A stretch of 64,000 nucleotides of DNA from Candidatus Doudnabacteria bacterium (GTDB lineage: Bacteria; Patescibacteriota; Doudnabacteria; UBA920), in contig CAWINB010000001.1 in the NCBI GenBank assembly GCA_963837465.1, forward strand, positions 11,915 to 75,914. The letters run 5' to 3'. Position numbers and translations under genes: made by a program. The notes below the pieces were generated by a model. The model saw only the letters and a list, made by a program, of their open reading frames with translations, made no database searches and was not told where the DNA came from. Of this stretch, positions 1-37,698 are shown in pieces. Every line of letters begins with the position of its first letter. The stretch's first letter is position 1.

Positions 1-1
1 G

Positions 2-3404: not shown

Positions 3405-3439
3405 CCCGACTTTCTGTTCCGATGATTGTCGGACCCCCC
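3400..3439. repeat. Tn3-family terminal inverted repeat, 40 bp (inner end CTTAAC, outer end a C/G run).
   Basis: Read from the outer end it is GGGGGGTCCGACAATCATCGGAACAGAAAGTCGGGTTAAG, matching the GGGG...TAAG Tn3-family IR pattern. It overlaps the tnpA stop codon. Confidence 0.6.
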
Positions 3440-3540
3440 TGATGGGCCACGAGTCGCTGGAAACCACCCGCCGCTACATCCAGCCCGGCCACGACGACCT
3501 GGCCGCGGCCGTCGAGCGCATCGCCGGCGGGGAGGAGTGA
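3440..3540 (+). pseudogene. 3' remnant (~32 aa) of a second tyrosine recombinase gene, apparently interrupted by the transposon insertion.
   Basis: [33 protein letters not shown] directly abuts the IR. It contains the conserved H-x-x-R...Y C-terminal motif of tyrosine recombinases with no upstream part. Confidence 0.5.
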
Positions 3541-3964
3541 GCGGCGCACGGCGAAACCTTGCGCTAACGACACAACCTCACCTCTGCCGCCCAGGGCCAA
3601 GGGTAGCCAGCGAGGCGCGGAAGCAGCGAACTCGCGAAGAGTTTGTCCATCGCCCTGCGGCATCGCTGCGGCCCTCAACACCCAGGACCACAAGACCCGT
3701 CGCGATTGACCTTAGCTCGCCCGGTAATATTCGACTGGCTTGTGCTCGATACCGGCCCGCCCGCCGGCATCGGTTTCAACACCACCGACCCGACCGTCCC
3801 GGCGCCGATCGCCGCCACGAACCCGCCCCGACCGGCCGGATTCGGCCACCCGGCTCCCGATCGAAGGCCGACGAGCCCACGACGGGCCGGAAACGACCGT
3901 CTGAACCGTTCGGATGAGCTCGCAAGTCGCAAATCGCGCCGACCCGACCCGAAAATCCGGTCGG

Positions 3965-4035
3965 GGCGGTAACGCCTAAAAATGGAGCTTGACCCCATTC
4001 GTTACGCATACTAAAATGCGTAGATTACGCAAATT
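3965..4035. promoter_or_regulatory. AT-rich island with TTACGCA direct/inverted repeats (iteron/operator-like) upstream of the Rep-like gene.
   Basis: TTACGCA at 4002 and 4025, inverted TGCGTAG at 4017, related GTAACGCC at 3969. Low-GC patch inside ~70% GC DNA. Confidence 0.4.
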
Positions 4036-4375
4036 TCCGCAGCGGCGCGGTAGATTAAGACGGCAGAGTCCCGTCAGCAAGCTTAAAAACCCAGAAGTCC
4101 GGGCCGGGCGGATCGTCCCACGAACCCCTTGCATCTGAGCCACCATCACGAGACGATGGGAGGGCACAAACGGAAACGGCCAGGAGCCATCAACTCCCAG
4201 CCGCTCTTGACTCGGTTTCGACCTCATGGGGAGGCCGGCCGATCGCCGTGCGCCCTTAACAGCAGAAGGGACGCAATCGATGACCATCATACACCGCGGG
4301 CCGTCCCCGGGGAAGGGGACGGCCGTTGGGGTTTGCGCACTCAGGCCGGGACTCACCGGCCGGGGAGGTGCACCA

Positions 4376-5086
4376 TGAGTGCATCGGCCCTCTTCGCCAA
4401 GAACGGCGACTTCTACATCCCCGTCACCGTCCAGCTCGCACAGATCCCACGGGGCGACCGCACCGCTGCCTGGCTGGTCTACTCCGCACTGGTCGACAAC
4501 CTCCGGCCCGGACAGACCGTCCTCGGCGAGCGGTTCACCGACCGGGTCCTCCGCCAAAGCCCCTGGCTGCATGGGTACAGTTACCGGTTCGTCCAGAAGG
4601 GGCTCCACGTCCTCGAGCAGTGGGGGATCATCAAACGGGAACGCGGGCACGGCCGACGGATCATCACCTTCACCGGCCGCCTCAGGCCCTCGGGCAAGAC
4701 CGCCAGACCCGAGCCCAAATCCCCCGACAAGCCCAAGCCCAAGCCCAAGCCCGGACCCGCACCAGGACCGGACAGCACGCCCCTGACTCCCGAGCAGATC
4801 GCCGCCGCCGACAGGGCCCTCCAGCAGAAGTATGCCCAGGCCCAGGCCGAGGCTGACGACGACCCCGAGATCCAGGCCCAGGCCGACCAGTGGCGACAGC
4901 GCGGCGCCGAGCTCGCACGAAATGCGCAGCGAGAAGGCCAAAGCCAAGCAGGCCAAGCTCGAGGACCAGGCCCCCAAGAATCCAGAGGCCACCCGGGCCG
5001 AGGTCCAGGCACTCATCGCCGGACTGGCCGCCGCCATGAGGCCTCCCGAGGACCACGGCAAGCCACACGACCCCTCCGGACCCTGA
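4376..5086 (+). CDS. Putative winged-helix DNA-binding protein, possibly a plasmid replication initiator, with Pro/Lys-rich linker and acidic/Gln-rich C-terminus. Possible frameshift near 4920.
   Basis: N-terminal ~100 aa (AAWLVYSALVDNL...YRFVQKGLHVLEQWGIIKRER) looks like a wHTH. The C-terminal part continues in the ORF 4832..5086 frame (EKAKAKQAKLEDQ...). Confidence 0.4.
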
Positions 5087-5289
5087 CCCTCAGGACCAAC
5101 GGGCGATCACCCGAAACGCGACGGCCGCCCACCCCGTAGACGCTAACGCCGAGCCAGCCTGACCGACGTGCACCTATCCGCACGGTCGGTCTTGGTGCCG
5201 CACTCCACTCATGCACACCACCAAACCGCGGTCAACCCATCAACAAATCCATGTTCTTTTCTTTACGACCCATGCTATCGCACCGACGA

Positions 5290-5337
5290 ACGATTGCACC
5301 CACATCAGGGCGCAGGTGCAATCGCACCACGGTGCGG
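5290..5337. promoter_or_regulatory. Inverted repeats GATTGCACC/GGTGCAATC and CGCACC/GGTGCG in a lower-GC patch (candidate operator/origin element).
   Basis: 9-bp perfect IR separated by 15 bp, followed by a second short palindrome. Lies between the Rep-like gene and the par locus. Confidence 0.35.
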
Positions 5338-5879
5338 TTTTCTTAATGGAGTCTATAGCGCAAGACTAAAACCTCACGTCGGCTTGAGGCGGCCTATGGC
5401 CTGCCGACGTGGCGCAGGAGGGAGTCGCGCGAACACCTGGCGAGATGGCGGCAGCCCAGGAAACCCCCGGCCGTCGTGCATCCACGCAATCATGGAAACC
5501 ACTCCCCTGCCCTTCGCCGCCGGCCTGGTTTCCGACGGCCGCGCCCGGCGGCTCCCCAGCCCCGTCCTGGGCCGTGCGGGCGTCGGGCCGAGGGATCGGG
5601 CGGGCGGGCCGGCGGTCGCGGCAGAGACGGGCGGGGAGGGCCATTCCGGAGACGGGACGGCAACGCACCGGAGATCCCCCCTGCCCTGTCTCACCTCGGA
5701 TGGAGTAATGCCGAGTTTCTCGGACCCGGCCGGCCGACACCTCAAACTTACGACGTCATCGGCCAGGGCGTCCCAGGCATATCGACGGCAGCCCGGCCCA
5801 TCATACTCAGAACCCAGAGGACCACGGTTCCATAGACCCTCGGGCCTCAGAGCACATGGGCTCCTGATACCCTGGTTCT

Positions 5880-6600
5880 CGGGACATATCGGCTCAGAGT
5901 TCCTGGAGCCTGAAAGCCTATGAAGCCGCGGGACTTCAGGCTCGGAGGCCTCCCGGCCCGTGAGATTTCAGCCCCATGGGCACGCGAGTCCCCAGGCTCG
6001 TGAGCCCGCGATACCCTGGCCCTCGAGAACGATGGGCTCAGAATTCTTGGAGGCTGAAGGCTCATGAAACCGCGGGATTTCAGGATCGTAAGTCTTTGGG
6101 CCTGCGACCATTTCGGGACCACGGGCGTTCGGGTTCGTGGGATTTCAGGTCCATAGGCCCGCGGCACCGAAGGCTCCAGGGTGAACAATCCCGCGGGCTT
6201 GCGGACTTCTGGGCTCGCAGATCTCTAGGCTCGCGACCCTCTAGGCTCGCGACCTTCTGAGCCCATAGCGCTTCGGGCCTGGGGACCTCTGGGCCCGTGA
6301 GCTTCCGAGCCCATGGGGCTTCGGGCCTGGGAACTTCCACGCCCGCGAGCTTTCAGGACCGTAGACCTTCAGGACCGCAGCCTTCTGGACCCACGAGCTT
6401 CCGAGACCGCAGCGCTTCGAGCCCGAGGACTTCCAGGTCCGCGAGCTTTCAGGACCGTAGACTTTTAGGACCGCAGCCTTCTGGGCTCACGAGTTTCCGG
6501 GACCGCAGAGCTTCGGGTCTGGAGCCTTCCAGGCCCGCGAGCTTCCGGGCCCGCAGCGCTTCGAGCCTGAAACCCCGCGGGCTCCCGGTCCTTCGATGCG
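5880..6600. repeat. Degenerate tandem-repeat array upstream of parA (centromere/parS-like or iteron array).
   Basis: Repeated 12-20 nt submotifs (gagcttccgagc, cttcgggcctgg, ttcaggaccgtagac, ttctgggc). A ~96-bp higher-order unit repeats 2.3x from ~6340 to 6570. A ~140-bp unit occurs at 5891 and 6034. Confidence 0.75.
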
Positions 6601-6659
6601 GAAAGCCTCAAGGCTTGCGGGGTCATAGCCGATGAGGAGACACAGCAGGGAGGTAGGGC

Positions 6660-7478
6660 ATGCGTTCCATCGCGCTGGTGTCCGAAAAAGGCGGGTGCGG
6701 CAAGTCAACGACGGTCCTCAACACGGCGGCCTGCATGGCAGCCGGTGGGCTCCGGGTCCTCGTGGTGGACACGGACCCCCAGGCGAATTCCAGCTACGTC
6801 CTCCTCCGCGGGGAGAAGCCACGCCGGCCGGCGCTCCTGGAGGTTCTCGCGGCCGAGGCGGAGGCCCGGGAGGCCATCGTCCCATCCCCATCCTTCGCAG
6901 GCGTGGACCTCCTGCCGGCGGACCCGACGCTGGCGGACGCCACGGTCATGCTGGCGAACGAGGTGGGACGGGAACGACGCCTCCGCGTGGCGCTCGAGGA
7001 GATCGGGGACGACTACGACATCATCCTCGTGGACACGGCCCCCACGCGGTCGCTCATCACGACGAACGTTCTGAACTTCGCGGAGGAGATCCTGGTCCCG
7101 ATCGCTCCGGGACTCTTCGGCGTCCTCGGCCTCGGCCAGCTCCAGGCGGACGTCGCCCAGGTCCGGCGGTTCCTGGACAACAAGGCCCTCCGCATCGGCG
7201 GGATCCTGCTGACGATGGTGGAGAAGAACAACGTGGCCAAGGACCTCGAAGGGCAGCTCCGCCAGCTCTTCGGCGAGCTCGTCTTCCGGACCAAGATCCC
7301 GCGATCCATCAAGCTCGAAGAGGCGCACTTCCGCCACGAGTCCATTCTGGCCTACGCCCCCCGGAGCGTCGGGGCGGAGGCCTACAAGGCCCTCACGCAG
7401 GAGATCCTGGACCATGGCCGAGAAGAAAACCGGATTGACGGTACCCGCGGGAATCCTTCAACCCACCACGCCGCTTGA
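6660..7478 (+). CDS. parA: ParA/Soj-family partition ATPase.
   Basis: Deviant Walker A VSEKGGCGKST, ParA-like body, 272 aa. 4-nt overlap with the downstream RHH gene. Confidence 0.9.
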   Translation: MRSIALVSEKGGCGKSTTVLNTAACMAAGGLRVLVVDTDPQANSSYVLLRGEKPRRPALLEVLAAEAEAREAIVPSPSFAGVDLLPADPTLADATVMLANEVGRERRLRVALEEIGDDYDIILVDTAPTRSLITTNVLNFAEEILVPIAPGLFGVLGLGQLQADVAQVRRFLDNKALRIGGILLTMVEKNNVAKDLEGQLRQLFGELVFRTKIPRSIKLEEAHFRHESILAYAPRSVGAEAYKALTQEILDHGREENRIDGTRGNPSTHHAA

Positions 7479-7746
7479 AGACCCATCGGCCGAGGAAGGG
7501 CAGGGGGACGGCCCCGCCCGGGACGAGGGCCAGGAATCCCGAGCGGCCTCCAAGGCGGCCCGGAAAAATAAGGTCACGGACAAGGCCAGCTCCGGGAAGG
7601 TCGAAGGGCGGCGGCTCTACCTGTCGGAAGGCGTCCACTTCCGGCTCCGGCTTTATGCCTACCAGCGCGGTCAGAAACTCTCCGACGCGGCGGAGGAACT
7701 CCTCGACCGGTCCTTGCCGAAATGGGACGTCAGCCGGGTAGGGTAG
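7414..7746 (+). CDS. Ribbon-helix-helix (CopG/ParG-like) small DNA-binding protein, probable centromere-binding partner of ParA.
   Basis: Disordered acidic/basic N-terminus then an RHH-type C-terminal domain (GRRLYLSEGVHFRLRLYAYQRGQKLSDAAEELLDRSLP). Start overlaps parA 3' end. Confidence 0.65.
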   Translation: MAEKKTGLTVPAGILQPTTPLEDPSAEEGQGDGPARDEGQESRAASKAARKNKVTDKASSGKVEGRRLYLSEGVHFRLRLYAYQRGQKLSDAAEELLDRSLPKWDVSRVG

Positions 7747-7855
7747 GGCGGGGGGAGAACCCCCTCCTCAGAACCGGCATCACCCGGAGAGTCGGGCGAG
7801 GCCGGAACGCCGTAGGGCAGGGGAGGCTGCCAAGGACAACCCAGGAGGCCGCGTG

Positions 7856-8303
7856 ATGAGCAAGCGGGACGAATCGAGGAAAGCCTCTCGGGAGGTCGCT
7901 TTGGAGTCGATGGGATGTCCCCAGGCCGTCGTCAACGAGAAGGGCAAGGGCCGCAAGCTGACGCTGCCCGACAGCGTCTTCGACCGGCTGGTGCTCACGG
8001 CGATCCAGCGCGGGTACACCGCCTCGGCGATCGCCGCGGAGATCCTCGACCGGAACCTGCCAGGCTCCGAATCGCCAGCGATGAATAAGCCAGGGCCGAG
8101 AAAGCTTCAGCGCAGCCAGGCGCATCCGGGGCCGGACGATCTACCTGCCGGACGACCTGTTCGAGCGGATCCTGGTCCAGGCCCATCGCCGCGACCGGAC
8201 CATCAGCGAGTACATCGCCGGCATCCTCGAGCGCCAGGTCCCCGACCACCGGATCGCCCGCGCCGAGCCGGCCAGCGAGTCGACCGAGGCCGGGACGGCG
8301 TAG
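7856..8303 (+). CDS. Protein with two tandem RHH domains, paralogous to the ParG-like protein. Apparent 1-bp frameshift near 8135 (ccggggcc run).
   Basis: RHH1 = GRKLTLPDSVFDRLVLTAIQRGYTASAIAAEILDRNLP. RHH2 = GRTIYLPDDLFERILVQAHRRDRTISEYIAGILERQVP in the -1 frame. Both align to the ParG RHH. Confidence 0.5.
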
Positions 8304-8436
8304 GTCCTGTGGGGCAGGGGAGGGCCCTGATGGTCGAGAATGCGTGCTATTGGAGTTCATTTTTTTCGTTGCAGTTCCCCACAAGACGTGCAATAATCCC
8401 TCGGTAGTTCTTGTTATTCACCGAGGAATCATTGCA

Positions 8437-9045
8437 ATGGCCGAGCCGGCCACCAAGATGAAAGCGGCGTTGGAGCTGGTCCGCGAGCAAGGGATGCTCC
8501 GGCCCCGCGACCTGTCCCGGCGCGACATCCCGCCCGACTACCTGGACCGCCTCTACCGGCTCGGGCGGGTCAACCGCGTCGCGCGGGGCCTCTACGCCTG
8601 GCCGGATGCCGAGGTGGGCGAGCACCATAGCCTCGCCGAGGCCGCGCGCCTCGTCCCCGCGGGGGTTGTCTGCCTCCTGTCGGCGCTGCGGTTCCACCGG
8701 CTGACCACCCAGTCACCCCGCGAGGTGTGGCTCACCCTCCCGAGCAAGGCGTGGGCCCCGAAGCTCGAGTACCCGAGGCTCCGGATCATCCGGGCCGGCG
8801 GCCCGGCGCTGACGGCGATGGTCGAGGAACACCGGATCGAAGGGGTCCCCGTGCGGATCTACGCGCCGGCCAAGACGGTGGCCGATTGCTTCAAGCATCG
8901 CAGCAAGGTCGGGCTGGACGTGGCCCTCGAAGCCCTCCGCGACGCCTTCCGGGGACGGAAGGCGACGATGGACGAGCTGTGGGCCGCGGCCCGCGTCTGC
9001 CGGATGGAGAACGTGATGCGGCCCTACCTGGAGTCCCTGGTATGA
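8437..9045 (+). CDS. abiEi: AbiEi-family antitoxin / transcriptional regulator (type IV TA system).
   Basis: LLSALRFHRLTTQSP...RIYAPAKTVADCFKHRSKVGLDVALEAL pattern typical of AbiEi. ATGA overlap with the downstream nucleotidyltransferase gene. Confidence 0.8.
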   Translation: MAEPATKMKAALELVREQGMLRPRDLSRRDIPPDYLDRLYRLGRVNRVARGLYAWPDAEVGEHHSLAEAARLVPAGVVCLLSALRFHRLTTQSPREVWLTLPSKAWAPKLEYPRLRIIRAGGPALTAMVEEHRIEGVPVRIYAPAKTVADCFKHRSKVGLDVALEALRDAFRGRKATMDELWAAARVCRMENVMRPYLESLV

Positions 9046-9963
9046 CGCGGGGGAATCCGAAGGACATGGCGGCCTCGGTGCGACAGCGGCTGCTCAACCT
9101 CAGCCGCCAATCGGGGGAGGACTTCCAGCGGCTGCTGACCCGGTATGGGATGGAGCGGTTCCTCGACCGGCTGTCCCGCTCGGAGCACGCCCCGCGGTTC
9201 GTGCTCAAAGGGGCCCTGCTGTTCGCGCTCTGGACGGGCGAGCTCCTCCGGCCGACGCGGGACCTCGATCTGCTGGGATTCGGCGACAGCAGCGCCGAGG
9301 GCATCGCCGAGGTCTTCCGATCGCTCTGCGCCTGGAAGTGGCGGACGACGGGCTGGTGTTCTCCGCCGAGACGGTGTCCGTCGAGCCGATCCGCGAGGAT
9401 CAGGAATACGGCGGCCAGCGGGTGAAATTCGAGGCGCGCTCGGGCAAGCCCGGATCGACCTCCAGGTCGACATCGGCTTCGGGGACGCGATCACGCCGGG
9501 GGCGGAGTCCGTCGCATACCCGACGCTGCTGGGCATGGAACCGCCGCGGCTCCGCGCCTACCCGCGCGAGACGGTGGTGGCGGAGAAGCTCGAGGCGCTG
9601 GTGAAGTTGGGGATGGCCAACAGCCGGATGAAGGACTTCTTCGACCTGGCCGTCCTGGGCCGGTCGTTCGCGTTCCAGGGCCCGGTCCTACGGGATGCGA
9701 TCGTCGCGACGTTCCGGCGCCGGGGGACGGCGGTCCCGACGGAGCTGCCGATCGCCCTGGGCGATGCCTTCGCCAAGGATGGGGCGAAGCTGGTGCAATG
9801 GAAGGCGTTCGTGAGCCGCAATGGCCTGGAGGGGAGGGCAGGGGATCTGGGGCAGGTGGTTGGCGAACTGGTCGGGTTCCTCGGCCCGCCGCTGATCGCG
9901 GCAGCGAAGGGAGAGGGGTTCGAGTGGCGGTGGGAACCGGCCGGTCCGTGGCAGCGGGCATGA
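9042..9963 (+). pseudogene. abiEii: AbiEii/AbiGii-family nucleotidyltransferase toxin (DUF1814), split across three frames by two 1-bp indels (~9335 and ~9445).
   Basis: GMERFLDRLSRSEHAPRFVLKGALLFALWTGELLRPTRDLDLLGF... continues as LEVADDGLVFSAETVSVEPIRE... and then ARIDLQVDIGFGDAITPG...MKDFFDL in shifted frames. Confidence 0.8.
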
Positions 9964-10019
9964 ACGGTCCACAAGCACCCGGATAGTGAAGGCATCGCAT
10001 CCCCGCCGGCCCGGTTGGG

Positions 10020-10095
10020 ACATCGCGGCCCGTCCGTCAGCCGGGCAGGGGAACCCGTCCGGCCCGGGCTCGCTTCGTCACCCGGATCCGGGCCG
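10020..10095. repeat. ~75-bp direct repeat, copy 1 (module boundary; possible promoter/regulatory element).
   Basis: atcgcggcccgtccgtcagccgggcagggg...gtccggcccgggctcgcttcgtcacccggatccgggccgggccgcc recurs at 11297-11375. Confidence 0.6.
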
Positions 10096-10311
10096 GGCCG
10101 CCGCGGACGGAGCGGTCGCGGCCCCGGGCGATGTCGCCCCGCTCGTCCAGCGGGATGTTCCGTCGAGGCCCTTGAGATCAGGGGGATTTCCCGGGGAAAC
10201 ACCCAACGCGGGCCGTCCGGTGGGAGACGGTCTTGCGGGCCACGGCCGGATCGAACAGGATGGCTGTCAGGGCAGAAACCGCGGCCCCATTCCGGAGACG
10301 GAGCAAACCCC

Positions 10312-10965
10312 ATGTCCACGGCCACAACGACTCGACCGACAGTCTCATCCCCGCCCCCTGGACGCCGCCACTCCACCGGATCACCGTCGACGAGTACGAG
10401 CGGATCATCGAGGCGGGTGCGCTGGAAGATCCCGGCCGGGTCGAACTCATCGACGGCTAGATGGTGGACAAGATGGGGAAGAACGCGGAGCATCGCTACA
10501 CCACCAAGAAGATCCTCAAGGCGCTGGACGGCCGACTGCCGCCGGATGGACGTCGCGAAGGAGGAGCCGGTGCGGATCCCCGCCTATGACGAGCCGGAGC
10601 CGGACGTCGCGATCATCCGGGGCACCGACGCCGATTACGAACATCGGATCCCCACGGCCGCCGACGTGGCGCTGCTGGTCGAGGTCTCCGACTCGACGCT
10701 GGTCCAGGACCGCGGCAAGAGGCTCTCGGCCTATGCAAGGGGCAGGATCCCCGTCTACTGGATCGTCAACCTGGTCAACCGCCAGGTCGAGGTGTACTCC
10801 CGGCCGGGGAAGAGCGGTTACCGGTCTCACAAGATCTTCGCATCCGGCGAGCAAGTCCCGGTCACGATCGGCGGCCAGCAGCTCCGCCCGATCGCCGTCG
10901 ATAACCTGCTCCCCCGCCGCAAAGCCACCGAGGGCAAGGGCCGGCCCAAGGGTAACGGGGCATGA
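10312..10965 (+). pseudogene. Uma2-family (DUF820, PD-(D/E)XK-like) putative endonuclease, copy 1. Frameshift ~10340, in-frame TAG at 10458, net -2 deletion ~10535.
   Basis: MSTATTTRPTVS / LIPAPWTPPLHRITVDEYERIIEAGALEDPGRVELIDG*MVDKM... / EEPVRIPAYDEPEPDVAIIRG...VYWIVNLVNRQVEVYSRPG, pieced from three frames. Paralogous to copy 2. Confidence 0.75.
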
Positions 10966-10968
10966 CCG

Positions 10969-11392
10969 ATGCCCAAGCCCATCCCCAAGCCACCGCGTGC
11001 CGAGGAGGTCCTGGCGGCGGTCGCGGCCCGGTACCCGGCCGGCGCGACGGTCACGCGGTCGGATGATCGCCGAGGTCGGCGGCGTCAACCTGGCGACGGC
11101 GGGTCAGATCCGCCAGTGGGTACGGCGCATGGGCGATGGCCGTTCGCCGACGGCAAGGGGGAGCCCGACCCCGTCAGGTCCGGCCCATCGGCCCGTCGCT
11201 GACCGGGACGGATTGGTCATAGATCGCCGATCAACCGAGCGGTGCGTCCACTCGTCAGATGGGTCCAGTCGGGAGAGCTCCGGCGGCTCGGCGACGATCG
11301 CGGCCCGCCCGTCGGCCGGGCAGGGGGGCCGCCCGGCCGGGCCGGGCTCGCTTCGTCACCCGGATCCGGGCCGGGCCGCCGGAAGATGTTGA
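10969..11392 (+). CDS. Small conserved hypothetical protein, copy 1 (MPKPIPKPPRAEEVLAAVAARYPAGATVT...). Frameshifted after ~30 aa and longer C-terminal tail than copy 2.
   Basis: First 29 aa identical to the 61-aa ORF at 12124. MIAEVGGVNLATAGQIRQW continues in another frame. Confidence 0.4.
11297..11375. repeat. ~75-bp direct repeat, copy 2.
   Basis: Near-identical to 10020-10095 with a few indels. Confidence 0.6.
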
Positions 11393-11497
11393 CGTCCCCG
11401 GCCGGCCTGTGAGTCAATGGATGTATCGGCGAGTCATGCTGATCCGCGGACCATCACCGCCACGCAAGGAAGATGACACTCGGTCGGAGTGAATCCC

Positions 11498-12107
11498 ATG
11501 TCCACCCTCGCGTCGATGCCGACTCAACCGGCGGGCCCGATTCGGATCCCCTGGCCGCTCTACCGCATGACGCCTGGAGCAATACGAGTCGCTGATCGCC
11601 TCCGGCTTCTTCGCCAAGCAGGACGACGTCCACCTCATCAACGGATACGTGGTGAACCGAATGGCCGAATCGCCCTTGCACGGCGCCGTCTGCGAAGCGA
11701 TCCGCATGGCCATCGGGGCGATCCTGCTGGCCGGCTGGCATACCCGCAGCGAGAAGGGGCTGAGGATCCCCTCGCAGATCAGCATCCCGCGCCCGACCTC
11801 GCCGTCGTGCGCGGCGACTGCGCGGGATTACTTGACCCGGTACCCCGACGCGGCCGATGCCGCCCTGGTCGTCGAGGTGTCCGTCTCGAGCCTGGACGAA
11901 GACCGGGCGATGGCCGACATCTACGCGGCCGGCGGCATCCCGGTCTACTGGATCGTCAACGTGGACGACGGCCAGGTCGAGGTCTACTCCGACCCGGGTC
12001 CATCCGGCTACCAGTCGCACGAGGTCCTCGCGCCCGGCCATGTGCTGCCGGTCGTGATCGACGGCGTCGAGATCGGCGAGATCCCGGTGGCCGACATCCT
12101 GCCCTGA
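11498..12107 (+). pseudogene. Uma2-family putative endonuclease, copy 2. Frameshift ~11575 and two compensating indels ~11790-11835.
   Basis: MSTLASMPTQPAGPIRIPWPLYRMTP / EQYESLIASGFFAKQDDVHLINGYVVNRM... / ...PDAADAALVVEVSVSSLDEDRAMADIYAAGGIPVYWIVNVDDGQVEVYSDPG. Confidence 0.75.
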
Positions 12108-12123
12108 CGGGAGTTGACCGCCC

Positions 12124-12309
12124 ATGCCCAAGCCGATCCCCAAGCCACCGCGGGCCGAGGAGGTCCTGGCGGCGGTCGCGGCCCGGTACCCGGCCGGCGC
12201 GACGGTCACGCTGCCGATGATCGCCGAGGTCGGCGGCGTCAACCTGGCGACGGCGGGTCAGATCCGCCAGTGGGCGAGGGCGTGCAATTCATACCGTTCC
12301 GAGAAGTGA
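12124..12309 (+). CDS. Small conserved hypothetical protein, copy 2 (61 aa, intact).
   Basis: MPKPIPKPPRAEEVLAAVAARYPAGATVTLPMIAEVGGVNLATAGQIRQWARACNSYRSEK. Follows Uma2 copy 2 exactly as copy 1 follows Uma2 copy 1. Confidence 0.5.
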   Translation: MPKPIPKPPRAEEVLAAVAARYPAGATVTLPMIAEVGGVNLATAGQIRQWARACNSYRSEK

Positions 12310-12315
12310 CCCCAA

Positions 12316-13130
12316 CTAGAAATCACCATAAGTCTTCACGCGGCGGGTCAGGTCGGAGATCGCCTCTCTGTGGCTCATGTGTTCCTCTCGCCTGAGCATG
12401 TCGTAGACGACGACGAATCGTCTGATCAAACGCTTTTCGAAGCCTTTACGGCTGGTGGATCTCATGGTCTGAACCAGACCCTCGAGGATGTCTGTTGGCT
12501 TCGTTCCCTCCCGGTATAATTCCTGACTGGCGCTACGGCAGTTGATCCAGACGTCGAACACGTCTGCCTCGAAATAGCTCGTCGCCTCGACGAGAAGCAG
12601 TTCAAACTCCCGGCCGGGCGGCATTGTTGCAGCCATGTCCTCATAGAATTCGCGCATCGACTTTTGGGCCTTAGCGAGCGGTTCATAGTCTTTGGAGTCC
12701 TGTTCTTGCAGGGCGTTTCTCTCCCTGGCGCACCCATGAGAAACTTGGCCGCGTAATCAGGCATCTCGGGATGACGACGCTTCGGATCATAACCCCGAGA
12801 AAAACCAGCGAACCACAAACAGAGAGAAACAAAGCCGATCACCCCGGCCGAAATCCCACCCACCAAGACGAGGGTCTTCAGTCTTGAACTTGAAGCCTGT
12901 GCGTTCTTCGGCCTCCACGGTTCGGACTCAGGGCTACCCCTTTCCTCGTCGGTCGCAGGCCGTGTCAGTGCCGGGGGAATCGGCGGCGGAGAGTCACCTG
13001 ACTTCAATGTCAACGGGAACGGGACCACGACTCCCCATCCGCACGACGGACATTTCGACCGCCGGCCAGCGTATTCATCCTTCACGCTCAGATTCTTGCC
13101 GCACGATCCACACGAGAAGCTAATCGCCAT
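12316..13130 (-). CDS. Zinc-ribbon / Pro-rich linker / single-TM protein with C-terminal soluble domain. Apparent frameshift near 12735-12750.
   Basis: N-term MAISFSCGSCGKNLSVKDEYAGRRSKCPSCG (CxxC...CxxC). TM LVLVGGISAGVIGFVSLCLWFAGF. C-terminal domain continues in the ORF 12316..12657 frame. Lies in the ~50-55% GC island. Confidence 0.45.
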
Positions 13131-13757
13131 CGATCGGCCTCCACCTAACGGCCAACACGAACGGCCACGCTTGGATCATGATATCGTGCATTATGTAGTA
13201 TTCAAGACAATCGAGCCTCCTCAGACCCCGCCGGCCAGGCAGGGGCGCCCTTCGGTCGGGGCGTTGGGCAGACCGCTCACCTACTTGCGGTCTGGGCTTC
13301 CGGTCTCGGATCATCCTCGATAATTCACCGGGGACCCAGACGACGCCCTGGTCGAGCCAGGGGCAAAGCGGATTAGTGCACCAAGCTCGTACGCACCGAG
13401 CTCCCCGCCGGGATCAGTTAGGTCGCGCCGCTCCCAAACAATTCTGTAAGCAACCGGTGAGGTACGACAACGGGGACAGATCACGTCGGCCATCGAGTTA
13501 GGCTCCCAGCAGGCCGGGATGCACTCCATTGGCATCTCCGTGCCCACTTCACAGCCTAATGCCCCAGACCTCCTTGGCTGAAACGGCGGGCCATCTGGTG
13601 ACCAGATTCCCTAACGTTAAGCGACTCTCGGATGAAGTGATGGCAGACGATCCGCTCGCGGGAAAACCCACGCTCAGTCTATAATCCGCTTGACTGCCTT
13701 TTACTTCATGACGTAGGTCTCGCTGTAAGGTGTGAGTGCCCAATAAGTTCCGAATTG

Positions 13758-14063
13758 CTACAGAGTATCACCTCGAAGGGATTCCTCAATCTTGGCCTTC
13801 AGCTCATCGGGGCCATTCACGTGCATCTTGAGGTCCTTCAGATCGCTTCCGCTAAAACTCAAAGTAACTTTTGACAGGTTCTCGTGGCCGATCGCATCTG
13901 CGACTCGCTGGCGTGCGATTTCCTCCATCTTGCTCCCGATGGAATCCCGGTTCTCTCGGAGGTATTCGTCGAGCATATCTTCGCCGTCGAATTCGAAGGA
14001 CATGATGGCTTCCACCTTCCAAATCGCTGGGCTCGGGTACTCCGCAGCAAACGGCCGAAACAC
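13758..14063 (-). CDS. Hypothetical small acidic protein.
   Basis: ORF with balanced composition in the lower-GC island. Likely starts at internal Met (MSFEFDGEDMLDEY...). Confidence 0.35.
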   Translation of the reverse strand: MFRPFAAEYPSPAIWKVEAIMSFEFDGEDMLDEYLRENRDSIGSKMEEIARQRVADAIGHENLSKVTLSFSGSDLKDLKMHVNGPDELKAKIEESLRGDTL

Positions 14064-14339
14064 ACCAAGTTCGCCGTGTGATTGGGTAGATTATCTAAAC
14101 TAAAGTATACGCCATTTCGCCGTCGATCGCAACGTCGCTTGCCGTCGCGGCTCTTGGCCTTCACGTAGCAAATGGACAAAAAACAACGCTAAGGCCGGTC
14201 TTTCCCGAAACTCAGTGGCTCAAGCAGGCCTGGGGACGTTGATTCTGTGACGGGTAACGGAACGGCTTTGAGGGGCCTTTTCAGCGGGATTTCGGCTACC
14301 CTAGGGGAGAGTGCCGAAATTGCTCCATTTCGGGATTGA

Positions 14340-15257
14340 GTGAGTCGAAGACCGGAATCGACATGGATGCTCACGCGATGGCTGGTGTTCCATGTCGCGA
14401 GCGGCCAATCGTTCTTCACAGGCGCCGCCTGCCTGATTGTTGCGGTGTGTCTGACAGCCTTGAAAAAGCAGCGTCACATACGCATAGCTCGGAACGCTCT
14501 CGTCTGTCTCGGAGGCATATTCGTCTCCGTGTCCGCGACACCGTTGTCGCCTTGGTTCTATCTCCTCCTGCTCATCGCGTCACTGCTCTGGTTGGTGGGC
14601 GAAGCGTTTGGTGGGCGGGTCTCCGGCCCGACTCGTCCTCGGGTTGCGGGTCGCTGTCGCCATCGTGTGGGTAGCGGCGGTGCTCGTCGAATTGCCCTAC
14701 CACCTCTCGCCGAGGGTTCCTCAACTCGGCCATCCGATTCTCGGAATCATCGGCGATTCGGTAACGGCCGGGATGGGTGAGCAGAAGGCCGTTACCTGGC
14801 CCCGAATCTTCGCGGACCGCTACGGCGTCGTGGTCCACGACCATTCTCTGGCGGGGGCCAATGTCGCTTCCGCGTTGCGACAAGCGGCCTCTGTTTCCTC
14901 GGACGAGCGGCTCGTTTTGCTGGAGATCGGTGGGAATGACATCCTGGGGGAGACCACCCCCGCAGGGTTTGAGGCGGGGCTCGCGGGTTGCTCTCGGCGG
15001 TCTGCCGACCCGGCCGAGTTGTTGTCATGCTTGAGTTGCCGTTGCCGCCCACGTACAACGCTTACGGCCGCATTCAGCGTCGCCTGGCTCGGCAATACAA
15101 GACCCTCTTGGTTCCCAAGCGAGTTCTGCTCGGTGTCCTCCAACAGCAGGGCTCGACCCTCGACACGATTCATCTCACCCAAGAGGGTCACCAAGGCATG
15201 GCCGACGCCGTTTGGAATGTCGTGCGGGCTGCGTACGAAGACGAGAGGCGGCCTTAG
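14340..15257 (+). CDS. Membrane-anchored SGNH/GDSL-family hydrolase. At least two 1-bp frameshifts (~14615 and ~14995).
   Basis: Three predicted TM segments, then GIIGDSVTAGMG (block I), LLEIGGNDILG (block III), and C-terminal ...LDTIHLTQEGHQGMADAVW (block V) in successive frames. Confidence 0.65.
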
Positions 15258-15353
15258 CGTTGTTTTCTGTCCGTTTGCTACTGGAAGGCCCTCTTGAAGT
15301 TCCTCGGACCCCGCCGGCCCGTCCGTGGCCCGGCCCCCCGCCCACCCCCGGAG

Positions 15354-16187
15354 TGCCGGCATCGTGCCGGCCCGGGCGGTCGGGCCGTCGTGGCCCGCCC
15401 GCTGCTCGCGCCCGCCGGCCTGGTCCCGCTCGAGGCGCCCGCCCGCCGGCCGGGCCGGTCGGAGGGCCGGCATCCTGCCGGCCACCCGCGACGGCGACCG
15501 CGACCGCCGCGGCCGACGGCGACGCCGAGCTGGTCCGCCTGGACTGGACAGCCCGCCCGCCGGTGACCGCCCGGGCCGGCCCGGGCCACCATCGCCGGCG
15601 ACGGTGACGGCGACGTCGGCCGCGGTGACGCGCACGCTGACGACGCCCAGGCCGTTGACCAGCTCGGCGACGATCGCCGCGGCGATGGGGATCCTCGCCT
15701 GGCTTCCAGAGCCGCCGGCTACGCTCAAGCGGAGACTGACGCGTCAATCAGAGAAGGGAGGGCGTGCCGCCGGCAAAGACACGCTGACGCGGGCGGACGT
15801 TTCCCAGGCGGTAGCTCGCCAGGCTTCAGGGGAATCGGAGCCCTGTTGCTTCGTAAACGACCAGCCGTCAGCCGCTCCCGACACATGCCGTGCCAGGCGG
15901 CTCACTGCGTTCGGCCCTACGGGCTACCCGCCTGTCACGGCAATATGCAGGGTCCGCGGTTCACGGGCACGGCCGTCCTGGCTGGGTTCGGCGGGCATCC
16001 TGCCCCCGGGCTTCGGCCAACACCCCCCAAGAATACCGGGGGGGGTTTTGGCCTCCGCCGAACAAAAGGTGGTCGCTTCGCTCCGCGCTATCAGTTGGGG
16101 GTAAGGAGGAGGAGAGGAGGGGGGTCTCCCCCCGCGGCCGGCATCCTGTCCGGCCCGCCCCAAGGCCACGGCGGGCATCGTGCCCGC
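15354..16187. repeat. GC-rich noncoding block with five copies of a 17-bp palindrome GCCGGCATC(S)TGCCGGC / GCGGGCATC(S)TGCCCGC.
   Basis: Copies at 15354-15370, 15466-15482, 15992-16008 (imperfect), 16135-16152 (1-nt insertion), 16171-16187. The two variants keep dyad symmetry through compensating changes. Confidence 0.6.
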
Positions 16188-16503
16188 CGCTGCCGCTGTC
16201 GCGGTGCATCGCCCGCCCGCCGCTCGCCGGCCCGCTCGTTGGCGGGCGTCCGCCCCCCGGCCACATCGCCTCATCATTCGTTTATTAGTTCACTCTTGCA
16301 CGTATGTTTCCGGAAACGACACTAGTCGATTTTCCCGGGGAAAACCGCGATTTTCCCGGATTTTGGCTTATGACAGCCATAGTGTATTTTGGTACAATGG
16401 CGGTCCCGGGCCGGCATCGGGCCGGCCCGGGAAAGCAATGGCCCCGCGAGTGCTAGTAACACCCGCGGGGCCGAGTCCGCAAGCTTATTGGAGCTCGCGA
16501 ACC

Positions 16504-17150
16504 ATGGCCACTGTAGCAGCTCCGCCGCGCCCCGTCGGCGCGGCCCCGCCCCCCGTCCGTCACGGCATCTGCCGGCTCACCCTCCGGATCGGAGGCACCG
16601 AGTACCGCCTCCGGCCCATGCCCGCCCCAGCCCGGCTTCCGCGCCGTCTGGGTGCTCAGGAAACTCGATCCGCACGGCCCGGTCGTGCACTACTCCGTCG
16701 CCCAGCCCAAGGGCGAGCCCGCCGGTTGCACCTGCCCGGATCACGAACAGCGTGGTCCATATGCAAGCACATCATGGCGCTTGCGGCGCTGGGCCTCATC
16801 GCCCCGCCGAAGGCCGCCCGGCCGGCCAAGGCCCGCACCCGGCAGCTCCACGCCAAGAATGCCCGCCAGGCCATCGCCGAGGCCAAGGCCCTGCCGGTCG
16901 AGGCCCGCCGCCACCTGGCGGAGATCGCCCCGCGCCCAGGCCTGCCCGGAGGGCTGGCAGTCCCGGCGGCGCCGCACCCGTCCTTCGCCACCGGCTTCCG
17001 CCAGGCCGTTGCCGCCCACGTCGCCCGCATCCGGCCGCGGCGGCCTATGAGCCATCTGCGATGGCTGCGGCGCGGAATTCGACCCAGATCTCCGGCGATC
17101 CCGAATTTCTGCGAAGCATGCTTGCGCGAAGGAGGTGCGCATGAACAACA
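16504..17150 (+). CDS. SWIM-type zinc-finger protein (hypothetical). Reading frame broken at ~16625 and ~16760; 3' end uncertain.
   Basis: GEPAGCTCPDHEQRGP + ICKHIMALAALGLI gives the C-x-C-x(n)-C-x-H SWIM signature when two frames are joined. Confidence 0.35.
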
Positions 17151-17476
17151 CCGAACTTCTCACTTACGTCCAGGCCGAGATCCGGCGCTGGGGGCGCTGC
17201 GGCGGCCCATGCCGCGTTCGTCGCCGATCAGCTCGATCGCATCGCGCAGCTCATCGTCGTTCACCGGCGCGAGACAGCCCGAGCAATTCGACGCGGATCG
17301 CGTGCAACGAGGAAGGCGTCAAGGAGGAAGCACTTCGAGCCGCGGCTACCGAGGGTCGGGAATCCGCACCTCCTGTCCATCTGAGCGGCCGTGCACCAAT
17401 TAGCCCGCCCCCCGCCCCACGGCCCGCCCCGCCCGTCCCGGGCGGGTCGGGCCTGCTCCCATCAGGAGATCACACC

Positions 17477-17731
17477 ATGGCGAAGAAACGACGCAAGAAG
17501 CTCACGAAGGCGGAGGCCGGCCGCATGGGCGGCAAGGCCACCGTGCGGAAGTACGGCCCCGAGCACATGCGACGATCGGCAAGGCCGGTTTCAGGCATCC
17601 GCCGGAAGTTCGGCTACATGGGCGGAGCCGCTGGCGCGATCCCGATGGCTGAAGAGGCAGGGGAAGATCCCCGAGCCTGGCCGACCCGCGACCCCGGAGA
17701 GCCGATCTTTCACGGCCTCTGGGAGCACTGA
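17477..17731 (+). CDS. Small basic protein with KGG-like repeat (MGGKATVRKYGPEHM...). Probably frameshifted.
   Basis: MAKKRRKKLTKAEAGRMGGKATVRKYGPEHM resembles KGG stress-protein repeats. Downstream repeat units appear in another frame. Confidence 0.25.
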   Translation: MAKKRRKKLTKAEAGRMGGKATVRKYGPEHMRRSARPVSGIRRKFGYMGGAAGAIPMAEEAGEDPRAWPTRDPGEPIFHGLWEH

Positions 17732-18589
17732 CGCCCGGCCCGACGAGCCCGAGGAGCCCGGTCATCGCGCAGATCCTGGCGTCGATCCGGCCGCCACCCA
17801 TCCACCGCACGACGAGAGGGATCTTCGGCTTCACGGCCGCACAGCGTGCGCCATCGCCCGAGCGACACGGGAGGATGACCCGTCATGACCAACGCCGAAC
17901 GCAAAGAGCCGCAGGGAGGCGGCGCTGAAGGCCGCCAGGACCCGCGCGGCGAAGCAGGCCACGGCCCCGGCCGAGCCCGAGGTGCCCACGCGCCCGGGAG
18001 ATCCTCGAGCGAGCCCGCGCCCTGGGCATCCACCGGGAGCGCGGCATCTACCGCTGGGCGCACGAGCTCAAGGCCGGCCATCACCCCAGGACTGGCCCTG
18101 GATGGTCCGGCAGGCCCTCCTCGGCGCCCTCGAAGTCTGGGAGGGGAAGCCGATGATCGTCCGACTTCGAGCAAGTCAACGCCCGCGGCGAGGCCTCCCG
18201 GCCGCGGGTCGATCTGAACGCCCTGGGCGCGCTCCTGGACCGCGCCGCCCTGGGCGTCGAGATGCTGCGCGGCCGGCTCCAGGCCGCCGGAGAGATCCCC
18301 GGCCCCGAGGCCAAGGCCCTGGAAACAGACCTCATCGCCGCGCTGCGGGAAGTCCGGTCGGTCCGGACCCGATCGCGGCGCCGCACCCCATGCACCAGGA
18401 GATGAGACATGCCCCGACCGAAGAAGAGCACCGACGGCCACGGGAAGGGAATCCCGCTGATCCCCTTCGAGGAGGTTGAACGCACCGGAAACCGACCTCT
18501 CGCAAGTCCCGGTCGAAGACCTGATGGACGAGCTCGCCATCGCGGGTTCCTCGTGGCCAAGGCCGATGAGGGAAGGCCCGAGCCGGTCA

Positions 18590-19079
18590 ATATTTGGGCA
18601 GGGACAGGGTAAATATGCAGTTTGAGATGCCGCTTAATAATATTATTTTGGATTTCTACGACAAACTAAAATCCGTTTCCAGCGGTTACGCGTCTTTAAA
18701 TTACGATTTTATAGAGGAGCGGGTGGGGGATTTGGTTAAGGTGGATATTTTAGTGGCCGGCGAACCCGTAGCCGCGCTCTCGGCCATAATGCACCGCAGT
18801 GTCGCCCACACCGACGGCAAAGAGCTGGTGGAAAAACTCAAAACCCTGATTCCCCGCCACCAATTTGAAATAGCCATCCAGGCTACAATAGGCGGCAAAG
18901 TCGTCGCCCGCGAAACCATCTCCGCTCTCCGTAAAGACGTTACCGGATATTTATACGGCGGCGATGTTACGCGCAAAATGAAACTGTTGAATAAACAAAA
19001 AAAAGGCAAAAAAAGGATGAAGCAGATTGGAAGAGTAGAAATCCCGCAGGAAGCGTTTTTGGCGGTCTTAAAGAAATAA
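18590..19079 (+). pseudogene. lepA: Elongation factor 4 (LepA), 3' terminal ~155 codons only. The 5' ~450 codons are missing at the GC-content junction.
   Basis: [30 protein letters not shown]...[40 protein letters not shown] matches the LepA C-terminal domain. The upstream sequence switches to ~70% GC with no LepA homology. Confidence 0.85.
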
Positions 19080-19141
19080 AGTTATCCACTTGACAATTGG
19101 TGTACGATTGTATACTATAAATACAAATAATATAAACTGAA

Positions 19142-19648
19142 ATGAAAAAAGAAGAACTTTTAGAAAAAGCAACAAACTTCGCCAAGAACAATGGTTATGT
19201 TGATGTAGTTAAAATAGCCAATGAGGCCGGGATTGGCGTTTTTGCGGTTGAAGAAGATGATAATTTCAACGCAAAGATTATTTATGACAAAGAAAATGAT
19301 AAGTACAAACTCTATGTAAATGAGAATCACACTATTGAAAGGCAGAGATTTTCAGTGGCTCATGAACTGGCACATCGAGTACTTCACAACGCAGAGTTAG
19401 TTACCTTGGGAAAATTGGATAGGGATGGCGATTCTATAATGGAGGAAGATGCCGATACCTTAGCCGCCGAAATTTTAATGCCTAAAATACTTGTTGAAAA
19501 TTATTTTGAATCACAAGGGTTTAAGGAAAACAAAATTGACAAAGGGATTATTTCCAGTATTGCAAAAAAATTTAGAGTTTCAAAAAGTATGACAATTCTT
19601 CGCTTAAGAGACCTAGACTACTATGTCCCCTTTATTCAATTTTCGTAA
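19142..19648 (+). CDS. ImmA/IrrE-family zinc metallopeptidase (DUF955/COG2856-like).
   Basis: HEXXH motif VAHELAHRVLH followed by a conserved Glu-containing region (EEDADTLAAEILMP). Confidence 0.75.
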   Translation: MKKEELLEKATNFAKNNGYVDVVKIANEAGIGVFAVEEDDNFNAKIIYDKENDKYKLYVNENHTIERQRFSVAHELAHRVLHNAELVTLGKLDRDGDSIMEEDADTLAAEILMPKILVENYFESQGFKENKIDKGIISSIAKKFRVSKSMTILRLRDLDYYVPFIQFS

Positions 19649-19922
19649 GGAGCCAAAACAAATATATACGGACGATGGGCTTGAGCAACTTACCCAAAAT
19701 GACGGCTACTGGCGTGTTAAGTTGTTGCGTGACGTTATTACCTATGTGGCGTGCGGTCTGATAGTTTTATTTGCCGTGGCTATTATTTATGAATATATAT
19801 TTGACTTAGCTTTTAGAAACTTCGTTATCGGGGAAATCAAAGATAGTTTTGAAGGGATAGTGTTCTTTGTTTTGTCTATGATTGGTATAACCTATAACAT
19901 AAAAGGAAAAAATTTAAAATAA
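19623..19922 (+). CDS. Hypothetical small membrane protein.
   Basis: 99-aa ORF with one TM helix. Ends at a terminator hairpin. Confidence 0.35.
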   Translation: MSPLFNFRKEPKQIYTDDGLEQLTQNDGYWRVKLLRDVITYVACGLIVLFAVAIIYEYIFDLAFRNFVIGEIKDSFEGIVFFVLSMIGITYNIKGKNLK

Positions 19923-19927
19923 AAAAA

Positions 19928-19952
19928 AATCGGCAAAATGCCGATTTTTTGG
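19928..19952 (+). terminator. Rho-independent terminator.
   Basis: atcggcaaaatgccgat hairpin followed by a T run. Confidence 0.6.
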
Positions 19953-19964
19953 TATAGTTTAACT

Positions 19965-21368
19965 ATGAACCAATATAAAGTTGGTTTCCAAAGCCAGGAT
20001 AAGGAAACAAGCAAATCTGAGCTAAAAATAGAAGGACAAATCCCGCAATGGCTAACAGGGACTTTGTTTCGGAATGGGCCGGCTAAGTTTGAGGCGGGGG
20101 ATCAGAAGTTAAACCATTGGTTTGACGGCTTTTCTATGTTGCATGCTTTTAGGTTCAAAAATGGGCAAATAAGCTACCAAAGCAAATTTTTAAACAGCCA
20201 CGCCTACGGAAAATCAAAAGCTAACGGTAGATTGCAGTATCGGGAATTTGCCACAGACCCGTGTAAATCTATTTTCGCCAAAGTTTTTACGGACTTTCAA
20301 AATAGTCTTACTGATAATGCCAATGTCAACATTAGCCGCTATGCCAAAGATTATGTCGCCCTTACCGAAACCACTTTGCCGGTTATTTTTGACCCACAAA
20401 CTTTGGAGGCAGCCGGGGTTTATGATTTTAAGGATAAAATCAAAGGCCAGGTTACTACGGCTCATCCGCATTACGATGCCCGAACCGGGGAATTTTTTAA
20501 TTACGTCGTAAAATTTTCCGCCAAAAGCGTTTACCGAATATACAAAGGGAACAGTGAAGCCAAAAGAGAATTATTGTGCGAAATTCCGGTAAAAAATCCA
20601 AGCTACATGCACAGCTTCGGCTTGAGCGAAAATTATATAATTTTAACGCAATTTCCTTTGGTAATTAACCCGCTTAAGCTGATTTTTTCCGGCAAGCCCT
20701 TTATAGAAAATTATCAATGGCGACCGGAATTGGGAACCGTTGTGACATTAATTAACAGAAGCTCCGGCGAAGTGGATGCCAATATTAAAACCGAAAGCTT
20801 TTTTGCTTTTCATCATATAAATTCCTACGAAAAAGACGGCGAAGTAATTGTAGACTTATGCGCCTATTCTAATCCGGATGTAATTCGGGCGCTATACCTA
20901 AATAATTTGACTGGGGAAAATCCCAGCGAGTTTCCTATGCCACACTTGCATAGGCTTAGCTTAAATTTAAAGCAAAATTTATGTAGCAGTAAAAAAATCT
21001 CCAATGTCGGCATAGAACTTCCCAGAATTAATTACCAAAATTTTAATACCAGGCCTTACAAGTTTGCCTACGGAGCTGCTTTTAGTAACTCAGACAGTTT
21101 TATTAATCAGTTGGTAAAAGCTGATGTTACGTCCGGGCAGAACATTGTGTGGCGGCGACAAGGGACTTTTCCGGGAGAACCTGTATTTGTGGCAAAGCCC
21201 GGTTCTCCCAACGAAGATGAAGGCATAGTTTTATCCGTAGTCCTGGACTCCAAAAGCGACAACTCTTTTTTGCTGATTTTGGATGCGAGCAATTTTAAAG
21301 AACTCGCCCGCGCCCAAGTTTCAAACCGTATACCTTTTGGCTTCCACGGGCAGTTTTATAAATCGTAG
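19965..21368 (+). CDS. Carotenoid cleavage oxygenase family protein (RPE65/CCD/lignostilbene dioxygenase).
   Basis: 468-aa ORF with the four-His beta-propeller signature regions (HWFDG, FHHINSYE, ...). Confidence 0.85.
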   Translation: MNQYKVGFQSQDKETSKSELKIEGQIPQWLTGTLFRNGPAKFEAGDQKLNHWFDGFSMLHAFRFKNGQISYQSKFLNSHAYGKSKANGRLQYREFATDPCKSIFAKVFTDFQNSLTDNANVNISRYAKDYVALTETTLPVIFDPQTLEAAGVYDFKDKIKGQVTTAHPHYDARTGEFFNYVVKFSAKSVYRIYKGNSEAKRELLCEIPVKNPSYMHSFGLSENYIILTQFPLVINPLKLIFSGKPFIENYQWRPELGTVVTLINRSSGEVDANIKTESFFAFHHINSYEKDGEVIVDLCAYSNPDVIRALYLNNLTGENPSEFPMPHLHRLSLNLKQNLCSSKKISNVGIELPRINYQNFNTRPYKFAYGAAFSNSDSFINQLVKADVTSGQNIVWRRQGTFPGEPVFVAKPGSPNEDEGIVLSVVLDSKSDNSFLLILDASNFKELARAQVSNRIPFGFHGQFYKS

Positions 21369-21377
21369 ATATTATTT

Positions 21378-21936
21378 ATGGCATTAAACGCGTTCATTTT
21401 TCACGGCACAGCGGGACATCCGCAAGAAAACTGGTTTCCCTGGATAAGGGAAAAATTAGAGGCCAGAGGACTTGAGGTTTTTGTGCCGCGGTTTCCTACG
21501 CCGGAGGGACAATCTTTAGAAGCTTGGCTTAAGGTTTTGGAACATCTTCGCGGTAAAATAAACCGGGACACAATAATTATCGGCCATAGTTTGGGCGGTA
21601 TGTTTGCCCTTAAGCTTCTTGAACTTTTAGAGCAGTCTGTAAAGCTTGCGGTTTTTGTCGCAACTCCAATTGGAGTTGGGGAAATAAAAAATTATGATGC
21701 CGATAAGGCTTTTGCCGGCTTTGATTTTGACTGGGAGAAAATTAAAGCAAACTCCAAAAATTTTATTGTCTACCATTCCGACAACGACCCCTACGTTTCC
21801 CTGGAAAACGGCCAGGAACTTGCAAAGCATTCTAGGAATTGAATTAACCTTTATCCCAAACGCCGGACACTTTAACAAAGCCGCGGGTTATTTAACTTTT
21901 GAAGATCTTTTGGAAAAAATCACGCCCCTACTTTAA
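21378..21936 (+). CDS. Alpha/beta hydrolase of the YdeN/RBBP9-like serine hydrolase family. Apparent 1-bp frameshift ~21830.
   Basis: FIFHGTAGHPQENWFPWI, GHSLGG nucleophile elbow. The C-terminal NAGHFN motif is in the +1 frame (ORF 21694..21936). Confidence 0.65.
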
Positions 21937-27308: not shown

Positions 27309-27384
27309 GCCGGCTTAGCTCATCTGGCAGAGCGGCGGTATCGTAAACCGCAGGTGGTCGGTTCAAGTCCGACAGCCGGCTCCA
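27309..27384 (+). tRNA. tRNA-Thr (anticodon CGU).
   Basis: Cloverleaf: acceptor GCCGGCT/AGCCGGC, anticodon loop ATCGTAA, T-loop TTCAAGT, CCA encoded. Confidence 0.85.
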
Positions 27385-36061: not shown

Positions 36062-36234
36062 AAAGATAATCAAAGGTTAATTCCCTTAATTATCCCATAG
36101 CCCAAATTCAAATCGAAAAATATGTTTTTGTCAGATTACGGCTCAATTAAAATCATTTTAAACTTTTATTAAAAATTAACCGGACACGAGTGAGGTCAAT
36201 ACAATAGAATTTTTAGTGACAAGTATACAACTAA

Positions 36235-37698
<1,464 letters not shown>

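Follow-up and report, generated by a model that had tools for sequence, protein, structure and literature searches.

Abrupt change of genome inside a truncated lepA gene: almost certainly an inter-phylum misassembly of an Isosphaeraceae-type plasmid and a Patescibacteria chromosome

The 64-kb stretch of DNA analyzed here (the “window”) passes within a few bases from high-GC to low-GC DNA, and its low-GC side opens in the middle of lepA, the gene for EF4. The question raised by this locus is whether the junction is a biological feature or a join between unrelated molecules that were never connected in a cell. A preliminary description of the window had proposed a non-natural chimeric join. This proposal is supported by the different phyla represented on the two sides, the interruption of a gene on each side, the independent continuations of both flanks, the blunt join and a change of consensus quality at the break. 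The features on which the analysis rests are listed below, where L082, L001 and L085 are contigs from other assemblies that match parts of the window.

1 to 18588, no strand assigned: high-GC (0.67) plasmid-like DNA of Isosphaeraceae (Planctomycetota) type with low consensus quality (Pfam matches, ParA, synteny with L082)
18409 to 18588, + strand: first 60 of the 92 codons of a conserved small plasmid gene, with two one-base indels (homology, L082)
18409 to 18612, + strand: open reading frame of 67 codons that spans the junction, interpreted as an artefactual chimera (ORF list)
18589 to 19079, + strand: 3′ fragment of lepA (EF4), 162 codons, with the end of EFG_C and all of LepA_C (Pfam)
18589 to 64000, no strand assigned: low-GC (0.46) Patescibacteria (CPR) chromosome with high consensus quality (LepA, Pfam matches, L001 and L085)

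The breakpoint was placed by homology of each flank and falls exactly at 18588/18589. The sequence reads ...GAGCCGGTC up to the break and AATATTTGGG... directly after it. The join is blunt, with 0 bases of microhomology and without filler or adapter; the base before the break differs from that of L001, and the base after the break differs from that of L082. GC content is 0.670 in positions 1 to 18588 versus 0.456 in positions 18589 to 64000, and is 0.72 for the last 60 bases on the left versus 0.35 for the first 60 on the right. A maximum-likelihood scan using GC alone gave a change point at 18586 to 18588. The abrupt switch that the preliminary description had located within 18575 to 18600 is thus real and sharp, and its direction was given correctly as a fall from ∼70% to ∼40% GC, but the left side is not uniformly 70% and the right side averages 46% rather than 40%. 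A tetranucleotide comparison of the two halves, which that description had also called for, yielded correlations of 0.83 to 0.96 within sides and −0.10 to 0.28 between sides (9-kb chunks), meaning that the profiles are uncorrelated across the break.

Consistent with the same description, no notable inverted repeat, direct repeat or target-site duplication was found in the 1 kb flanking the junction on each side. Note that a target-site duplication would need a second junction, which would lie outside the window. Rfam and tRNA scans returned nothing near the junction. Exact scans gave zero matches for a 39-mer across the junction in species-representative genomes and JGI metagenome contigs, and zero matches for a 51-mer from the left flank in metagenome and viral contigs. 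The exact product of the 67-codon ORF was likewise absent from the protein collection.

The lepA frame in the window (18591 to 19079) matches EFG_C profile positions 40 to 76 and LepA_C positions 1 to 107 of 107 (E = 1e-47, Pfam). The copy thus falls short of the full LepA/EF4 domain set (GTP_EFTU, domain 2, EFG_C and LepA_C) and lacks at least the first 427 codons. The rest of lepA is absent from the whole 64-kb window, in agreement with the earlier statement that the high-GC side has no LepA homology. The truncation itself was also recognized correctly, although the fragment comprises 162 codons rather than the ∼155 first estimated. LepA is 83% to 86% identical to proteins from Patescibacteria metagenome-assembled genomes (labeled Doudnabacteria, Patescibacteria group or Saccharibacteria), and the lepA DNA of relatives aligns to the window from base 18589 exactly.

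The continuation of the right flank in independent reads was found through the M78 peptidase gene at 19142 to 19648, which is present exactly on L001, a 4.5-kb Logan contig from run ERR10755945. Positions 1280 to 4514 of L001 correspond to window positions 18589 to 21824 at 99.94% identity (one mismatch and one gap in 3236 positions). Identity between the two sequences begins at window position 18589 and is absent before it: positions 1 to 1279 of L001 carry the remainder of lepA, which has no counterpart anywhere in the window. The lepA product of L001 is intact, with GTP_EFTU, D2, EFG_C and LepA_C. A second Logan contig from the same run, L085, is 100% identical to window positions 51870 to 58585 over 6716 nt. 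Because of this identity, the CPR strain of the window is present in run ERR10755945 also, with lepA intact there, although the run may represent a different sample from that of the source assembly.

In other respects the right side has the appearance of a normal, intact chromosome, with a coding fraction of 87% and four tRNAs. Full-length Pfam matches were obtained for three ATP synthase subunits (alpha, gamma and beta), HlyD, an ABC transporter, a histidine kinase and RPE65, and AcrB matches profile positions 2 to 1018 of 1021. Several details of this side were recorded. Three of the tRNA genes (tRNA-Met, tRNA-Met and tRNA-Asp) are clustered at 39374 to 39816 in the sole long non-coding gap of the low-GC side, and a tRNA-Thr gene is located at 27309 to 27384. 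An IS4-type transposase (DDE_Tnp_1 and DUF4372, 392 amino acids) is encoded on the − strand at 34895 to 36073, between atpG and atpD; it is situated inside the F-type ATP synthase operon in the opposite orientation, with flanking genes at 33552 to 34568 and 36247 to 37698, and the end of its gene is overlapped by a 120-codon ORF (34570 to 34932). The RPE65-family carotenoid oxygenase is full length in the window (19938 to 21368, corresponding to L001 2629 to 3918). L001 is without one G (window position 21177), which shortens its RPE65 gene to 429 codons; the difference may be a variant within the population or a mistake of short-read assembly.

The left side has a different gene content. Pfam searches identified a tyrosine-recombinase fragment, a Tn3-family tnpA, ParA, AbiEi and AbiEii, Uma2, a GDSL lipase, a SWIM-finger protein and small conserved genes. 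Three of these are located as follows; the others are given below with their frameshifts.

2 to 292: tyrosine-recombinase (integrase) fragment, 18.3 kb from the junction
6660 to 7478: ParA
8437 to 9045: AbiEi

The plasmids whose ParA is closest in tblastn searches are three from Isosphaeraceae (Aquisphaera giovannonii at 71% amino acid identity, strain EP7 at 64% and 48%), and all other plasmid matches are below 39%. When the whole left side was compared with plasmids by megablast, only the ParA region of an Aquisphaera plasmid was matched. Taken with the LepA relationships, gene-level taxonomy therefore differs across the break, and these sequence comparisons show that the two sides derive from unrelated genomes of different phyla.

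A syntenic relative of the left side was found in L082 (ENA ERZ25039522, contig_94365), a 36-kb contig that carries ParA, ParB, Uma2, the same small genes and a RepA (PF10134) replication gene. Window positions 18153 to 18588 align with L082 9746 to 10180 at 90% identity, with agreement at 53 of the final 54 bases, and similarity ends at 18588. Past its position 10180, L082 continues with GAAGTCCCGG..., which supplies 32 more codons of a 92-codon gene, and then with a further gene and RepA. The ORF that begins at 18409 in the window shifts frame twice, as judged by third-position GC; after repair of the frame, its product matches proteins of 92 amino acids along the full length at 81% identity (E = 7e-22). 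This family gave no match in a tblastn search of PLSDB. Because L082 runs on with the remaining 32 codons, the left partner is also cut mid-gene, at codon 60 of 92. Independent assemblies thus continue each flank differently from the window: L001 into an intact lepA, and L082 into the rest of the 92-amino-acid gene and RepA.

Within the left side, a stretch of 55% to 61% GC (∼12.2 to 15.2 kb) was considered as a second chimeric breakpoint and rejected, as its transitions are gradual. The portion from 12.2 to 13.2 kb is common to L082, and the remainder is bounded by Tn3-type inverted repeats. These repeats (14156 to 14197 and 15249 to 15290; 42 nt, 90% complementary) flank the GDSL lipase gene, and their inner ends read ...ACGCTAAG, as do Tn3-family terminal repeats. 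The lipase gene and its repeats look like a small Tn3-derived mobile cassette, judging from this arrangement. The segment from 13237 to 15309 around it has lower GC and is absent from L082. Similarity to L082 resumes at 15300 to 15600, where GC reaches 85% and frames are open on both strands, with no recognizable domain. The right terminal repeat of a Tn3-family transposon is located at 3398 to 3439 and ends in GGACCCCCC. L082 contains the identical 40-mer, plus a copy in inverted orientation (6010 to 6083 and 6383 to 6422), and the two surround an insert of ∼410 bp that is missing from the window; the arrangement points to a miniature derivative of this Tn3-family transposon without a transposase. 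A diverged tandem duplication of ∼1.2 kb that includes the Uma2 gene occupies 10022 to 11120 and 11297 to 12274, with ends that are 95% to 100% identical and a middle that is ∼74% identical. L082 itself, which has a “contig_N”-style name, appears to carry indel noise as well: its DegT/DnrJ/EryC1 aminotransferase gene (14501 to 15624) is broken into four consecutive ORFs.

Consensus quality changes across the junction. On the left, at least 10 frame-breaking one-base indels were verified in ∼7.3 kb of recognizable coding sequence, and several further indels are likely. Two of those verified are in the gene at the junction, where they are visible base by base against L082. The remaining affected genes are as follows:

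383 to 3442, + strand: Tn3-family tnpA with one indel near 2400 (DDE_Tnp_Tn3 positions 1 to 87 in frame 383 to 3442, positions 87 to 389 in frame 2364 to 3404)
9042 to 9963, + strand: AbiEii toxin gene with two indels (89 bits over positions 82 to 223, rising to 158.6 bits over positions 1 to 223 when three frames are joined)
11489 to 12107, + strand: Uma2-family endonuclease with two close indels (64.3 bits in Pfam, rising to 84.5 bits after repair)
14608 to 15257, + strand: GDSL lipase with one indel near 14990 (Lipase_GDSL_2, 45 bits over positions 1 to 91, rising to 64 bits over positions 1 to 177 of 178)
16504 to 17139, + strand: SWIM zinc-finger protein with at least two indels (SWIM match in Pfam after repair only, 25.9 bits)

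The APDLAVVRGD motif of Uma2 is in another frame, and this gene probably has a third indel at its 5′ end. The SWIM orthologue of L082 is intact (227 amino acids) and follows window frame 1 except for residues 43 to 84, which are in frame 2. The repaired left-side proteins contain no in-frame stops. Although the frameshifts could in principle represent natural decay of foreign DNA, a pattern composed of indels only points to a noisy consensus and not to gene decay.

On the right, by comparison, no frameshifts were found in ∼15 kb of full-length Pfam-matched genes. Against the short-read contigs this side has one mismatch and one indel in 9952 nt, and at the indel it is the window that has the intact RPE65 reading frame. 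The chance of observing zero indels on the right at the left-side rate is ∼1e-9. From an indel-rich left side and a clean right side we infer a large difference in read depth, which would in turn place the two sides on separate molecules in the sample.

We consider it very probable that position 18588/18589 is a non-biological join in a deposited contig, between an Isosphaeraceae-type plasmid and a Patescibacteria chromosome. The CPR chromosome would have been sequenced at high depth, and the plasmid, a separate molecule, at low abundance and depth. The link may have come from a chimeric long read, such as one produced by blunt-end ligation during library preparation; alternatively, a long-read assembler may have mis-joined the two. 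In either case the error would then have been deposited. By-products of this misassembly would be the truncated lepA, the 67-codon ORF and the AbiE, Tn3 and ParA genes that a CPR genome seems to carry.

Contigs that merge different phyla are a documented error of long-read metagenome assemblers, and can be identified from abrupt changes of GC, of coverage and of the taxonomy of individual genes (bioRxiv 10.1101/2025.04.22.649783). The contigs described in that study resemble the present one in shifting GC and taxonomy at one point of a long contig, in merging different phyla and in having reading frames corrupted by unsupported indels. They differ in how they were diagnosed, which was by read clipping and coverage there, and by independent assemblies of each flank together with consensus quality here.

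Chimeric reads can also arise in library preparation, through blunt-end ligation or amplification. Such chimeras, like the junction described here, are blunt, have no filler or microhomology, and connect unrelated molecules at arbitrary intragenic positions. Unlike the plasmid side of the window, a single raw read would bear more errors, and for this reason that side was probably backed by few reads or by one high-accuracy read.

It must also be asked at what stage the join was made. Nine low-GC proteins, ParA, AbiEi and a 154-amino-acid LepA fragment are on record (NCBI/ENA) as products of a 699,532-bp contig. The junction is therefore likely to be inside one public contig and not to have been made by cutting the window. 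Note that this claim depends on the shared figure of 699,532 and on the same sources being given for both sides. An alternative is an end-to-end join without a spacer, made after assembly between a CPR contig and a plasmid contig that had been mis-binned; it could date from scaffolding, bin curation or excision of the window from a multi-record file. We regard this as distinctly unlikely. Each side does stop mid-gene, as contig ends do, and there is zero overlap between them; yet ParA, AbiEi and the nine low-GC proteins all report one contig of the same length. Also against it, the 154-amino-acid LepA product on record starts at the internal ATG at 18615, whereas the edge-partial product (YLGRD...) expected had the record begun at 18589 is not on record. 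The absence of that product is weak evidence, as the edge-partial product of L001 was likewise not returned by homology search. A scaffolding-stage join made before deposition would be compatible with the evidence, and would still be an artefact.

A genuine event is still less likely. It would require that an Isosphaeraceae-type plasmid, or part of one, had integrated into lepA of the Patescibacteria chromosome by illegitimate recombination, in at least a subpopulation. Such an event is favored by the apparent presence of both sides on the one deposited 699,532-bp contig and by the mobile-element genes on the left (the tyrosine-recombinase fragment, the Tn3 transposase, and the partition and toxin–antitoxin genes). 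A blunt join without microhomology also fits rare illegitimate recombination. Moreover, lepA is dispensable in model bacteria, such as Escherichia coli under standard conditions, so that its disruption need not kill the cell. The preliminary description had argued from the essentiality of lepA that a natural insertion was improbable; this argument is weak because of that dispensability, and an insertion would leave lepA in two pieces instead of removing two-thirds of it.

When the missing LepA N-terminus (426 residues) was used in a homology search of 5.8 billion proteins, the best match was 92% identical, and the clusters closest to it held no member from the 699,532-bp contig. That contig thus has no complete called gene containing the 5′ part of lepA, which argues against a simple insertion with both halves of lepA present. 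Note that the 5′ part could still be located at the end of the contig, as edge-partial products seem to be unsearchable.

Other evidence also opposes genuine integration. The junction is neither a transposon end nor an att site and has no inverted repeat or target-site duplication; the right inverted repeat of the Tn3 element is near 3439, and more than 18 kb separate the integrase from the junction. A gene of the plasmid itself breaks off at codon 60 of 92, and independent reads show an intact lepA in a strain that matches the window at 100% elsewhere. Had the DNA been integrated, it would have the read depth and quality of its host, yet at least 10 indels, with no nonsense substitutions, are found on the high-GC side alone. 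GC content and tetranucleotide usage show no amelioration.

Tn3-family transposition or cointegrate formation resembles the present case in that mobile-element genes adjoin an interrupted housekeeping gene, and differs from it in that the junction is without a terminal inverted repeat or a 5-bp duplication and the mobile DNA is in turn cut off within a small, unrelated gene. The idea of a Tn3 end at this point was rejected because the Tn3 end is ∼15 kb away and there is no inverted repeat at the junction. Insertion of a transposon or IS element is inconsistent with the lack of inverted or direct repeats there and with a left flank that is the interior of the 92-amino-acid gene, and site-specific integration of an ICE or prophage with the lack of a junction repeat, an integrase fragment 18.3 kb away and a nearest tRNA gene at 27309.

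If the join were real, it would represent a CPR cell with at least 18.6 kb of unameliorated Isosphaeraceae plasmid recombined into lepA, which we consider extremely improbable. It would then be direct evidence of very recent transfer between phyla, possibly from a planctomycete host to its epibiont, and the frameshifts would stem from fast decay, or from low-depth sequencing of a rare subpopulation.

The junction is almost certainly not a biological feature but an inter-phylum misassembly. A literature search for the two accession numbers found nothing. The finding has no biological importance of its own, and its use lies in flagging contamination and misassembly in the public record, in which a 699.5-kb Patescibacteria contig appears to hold at least 18.6 kb of foreign, error-rich planctomycete plasmid. 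It also shows that a chimera can be diagnosed without reads, by finding an independent assembly for each flank and comparing the density of frameshifts across the break. Taken at face value, the contig would lead to false claims of loss or truncation of lepA, to a spurious fusion ORF, and to false claims of transfer into CPR bacteria and of AbiE, Tn3 and ParA being present in them.
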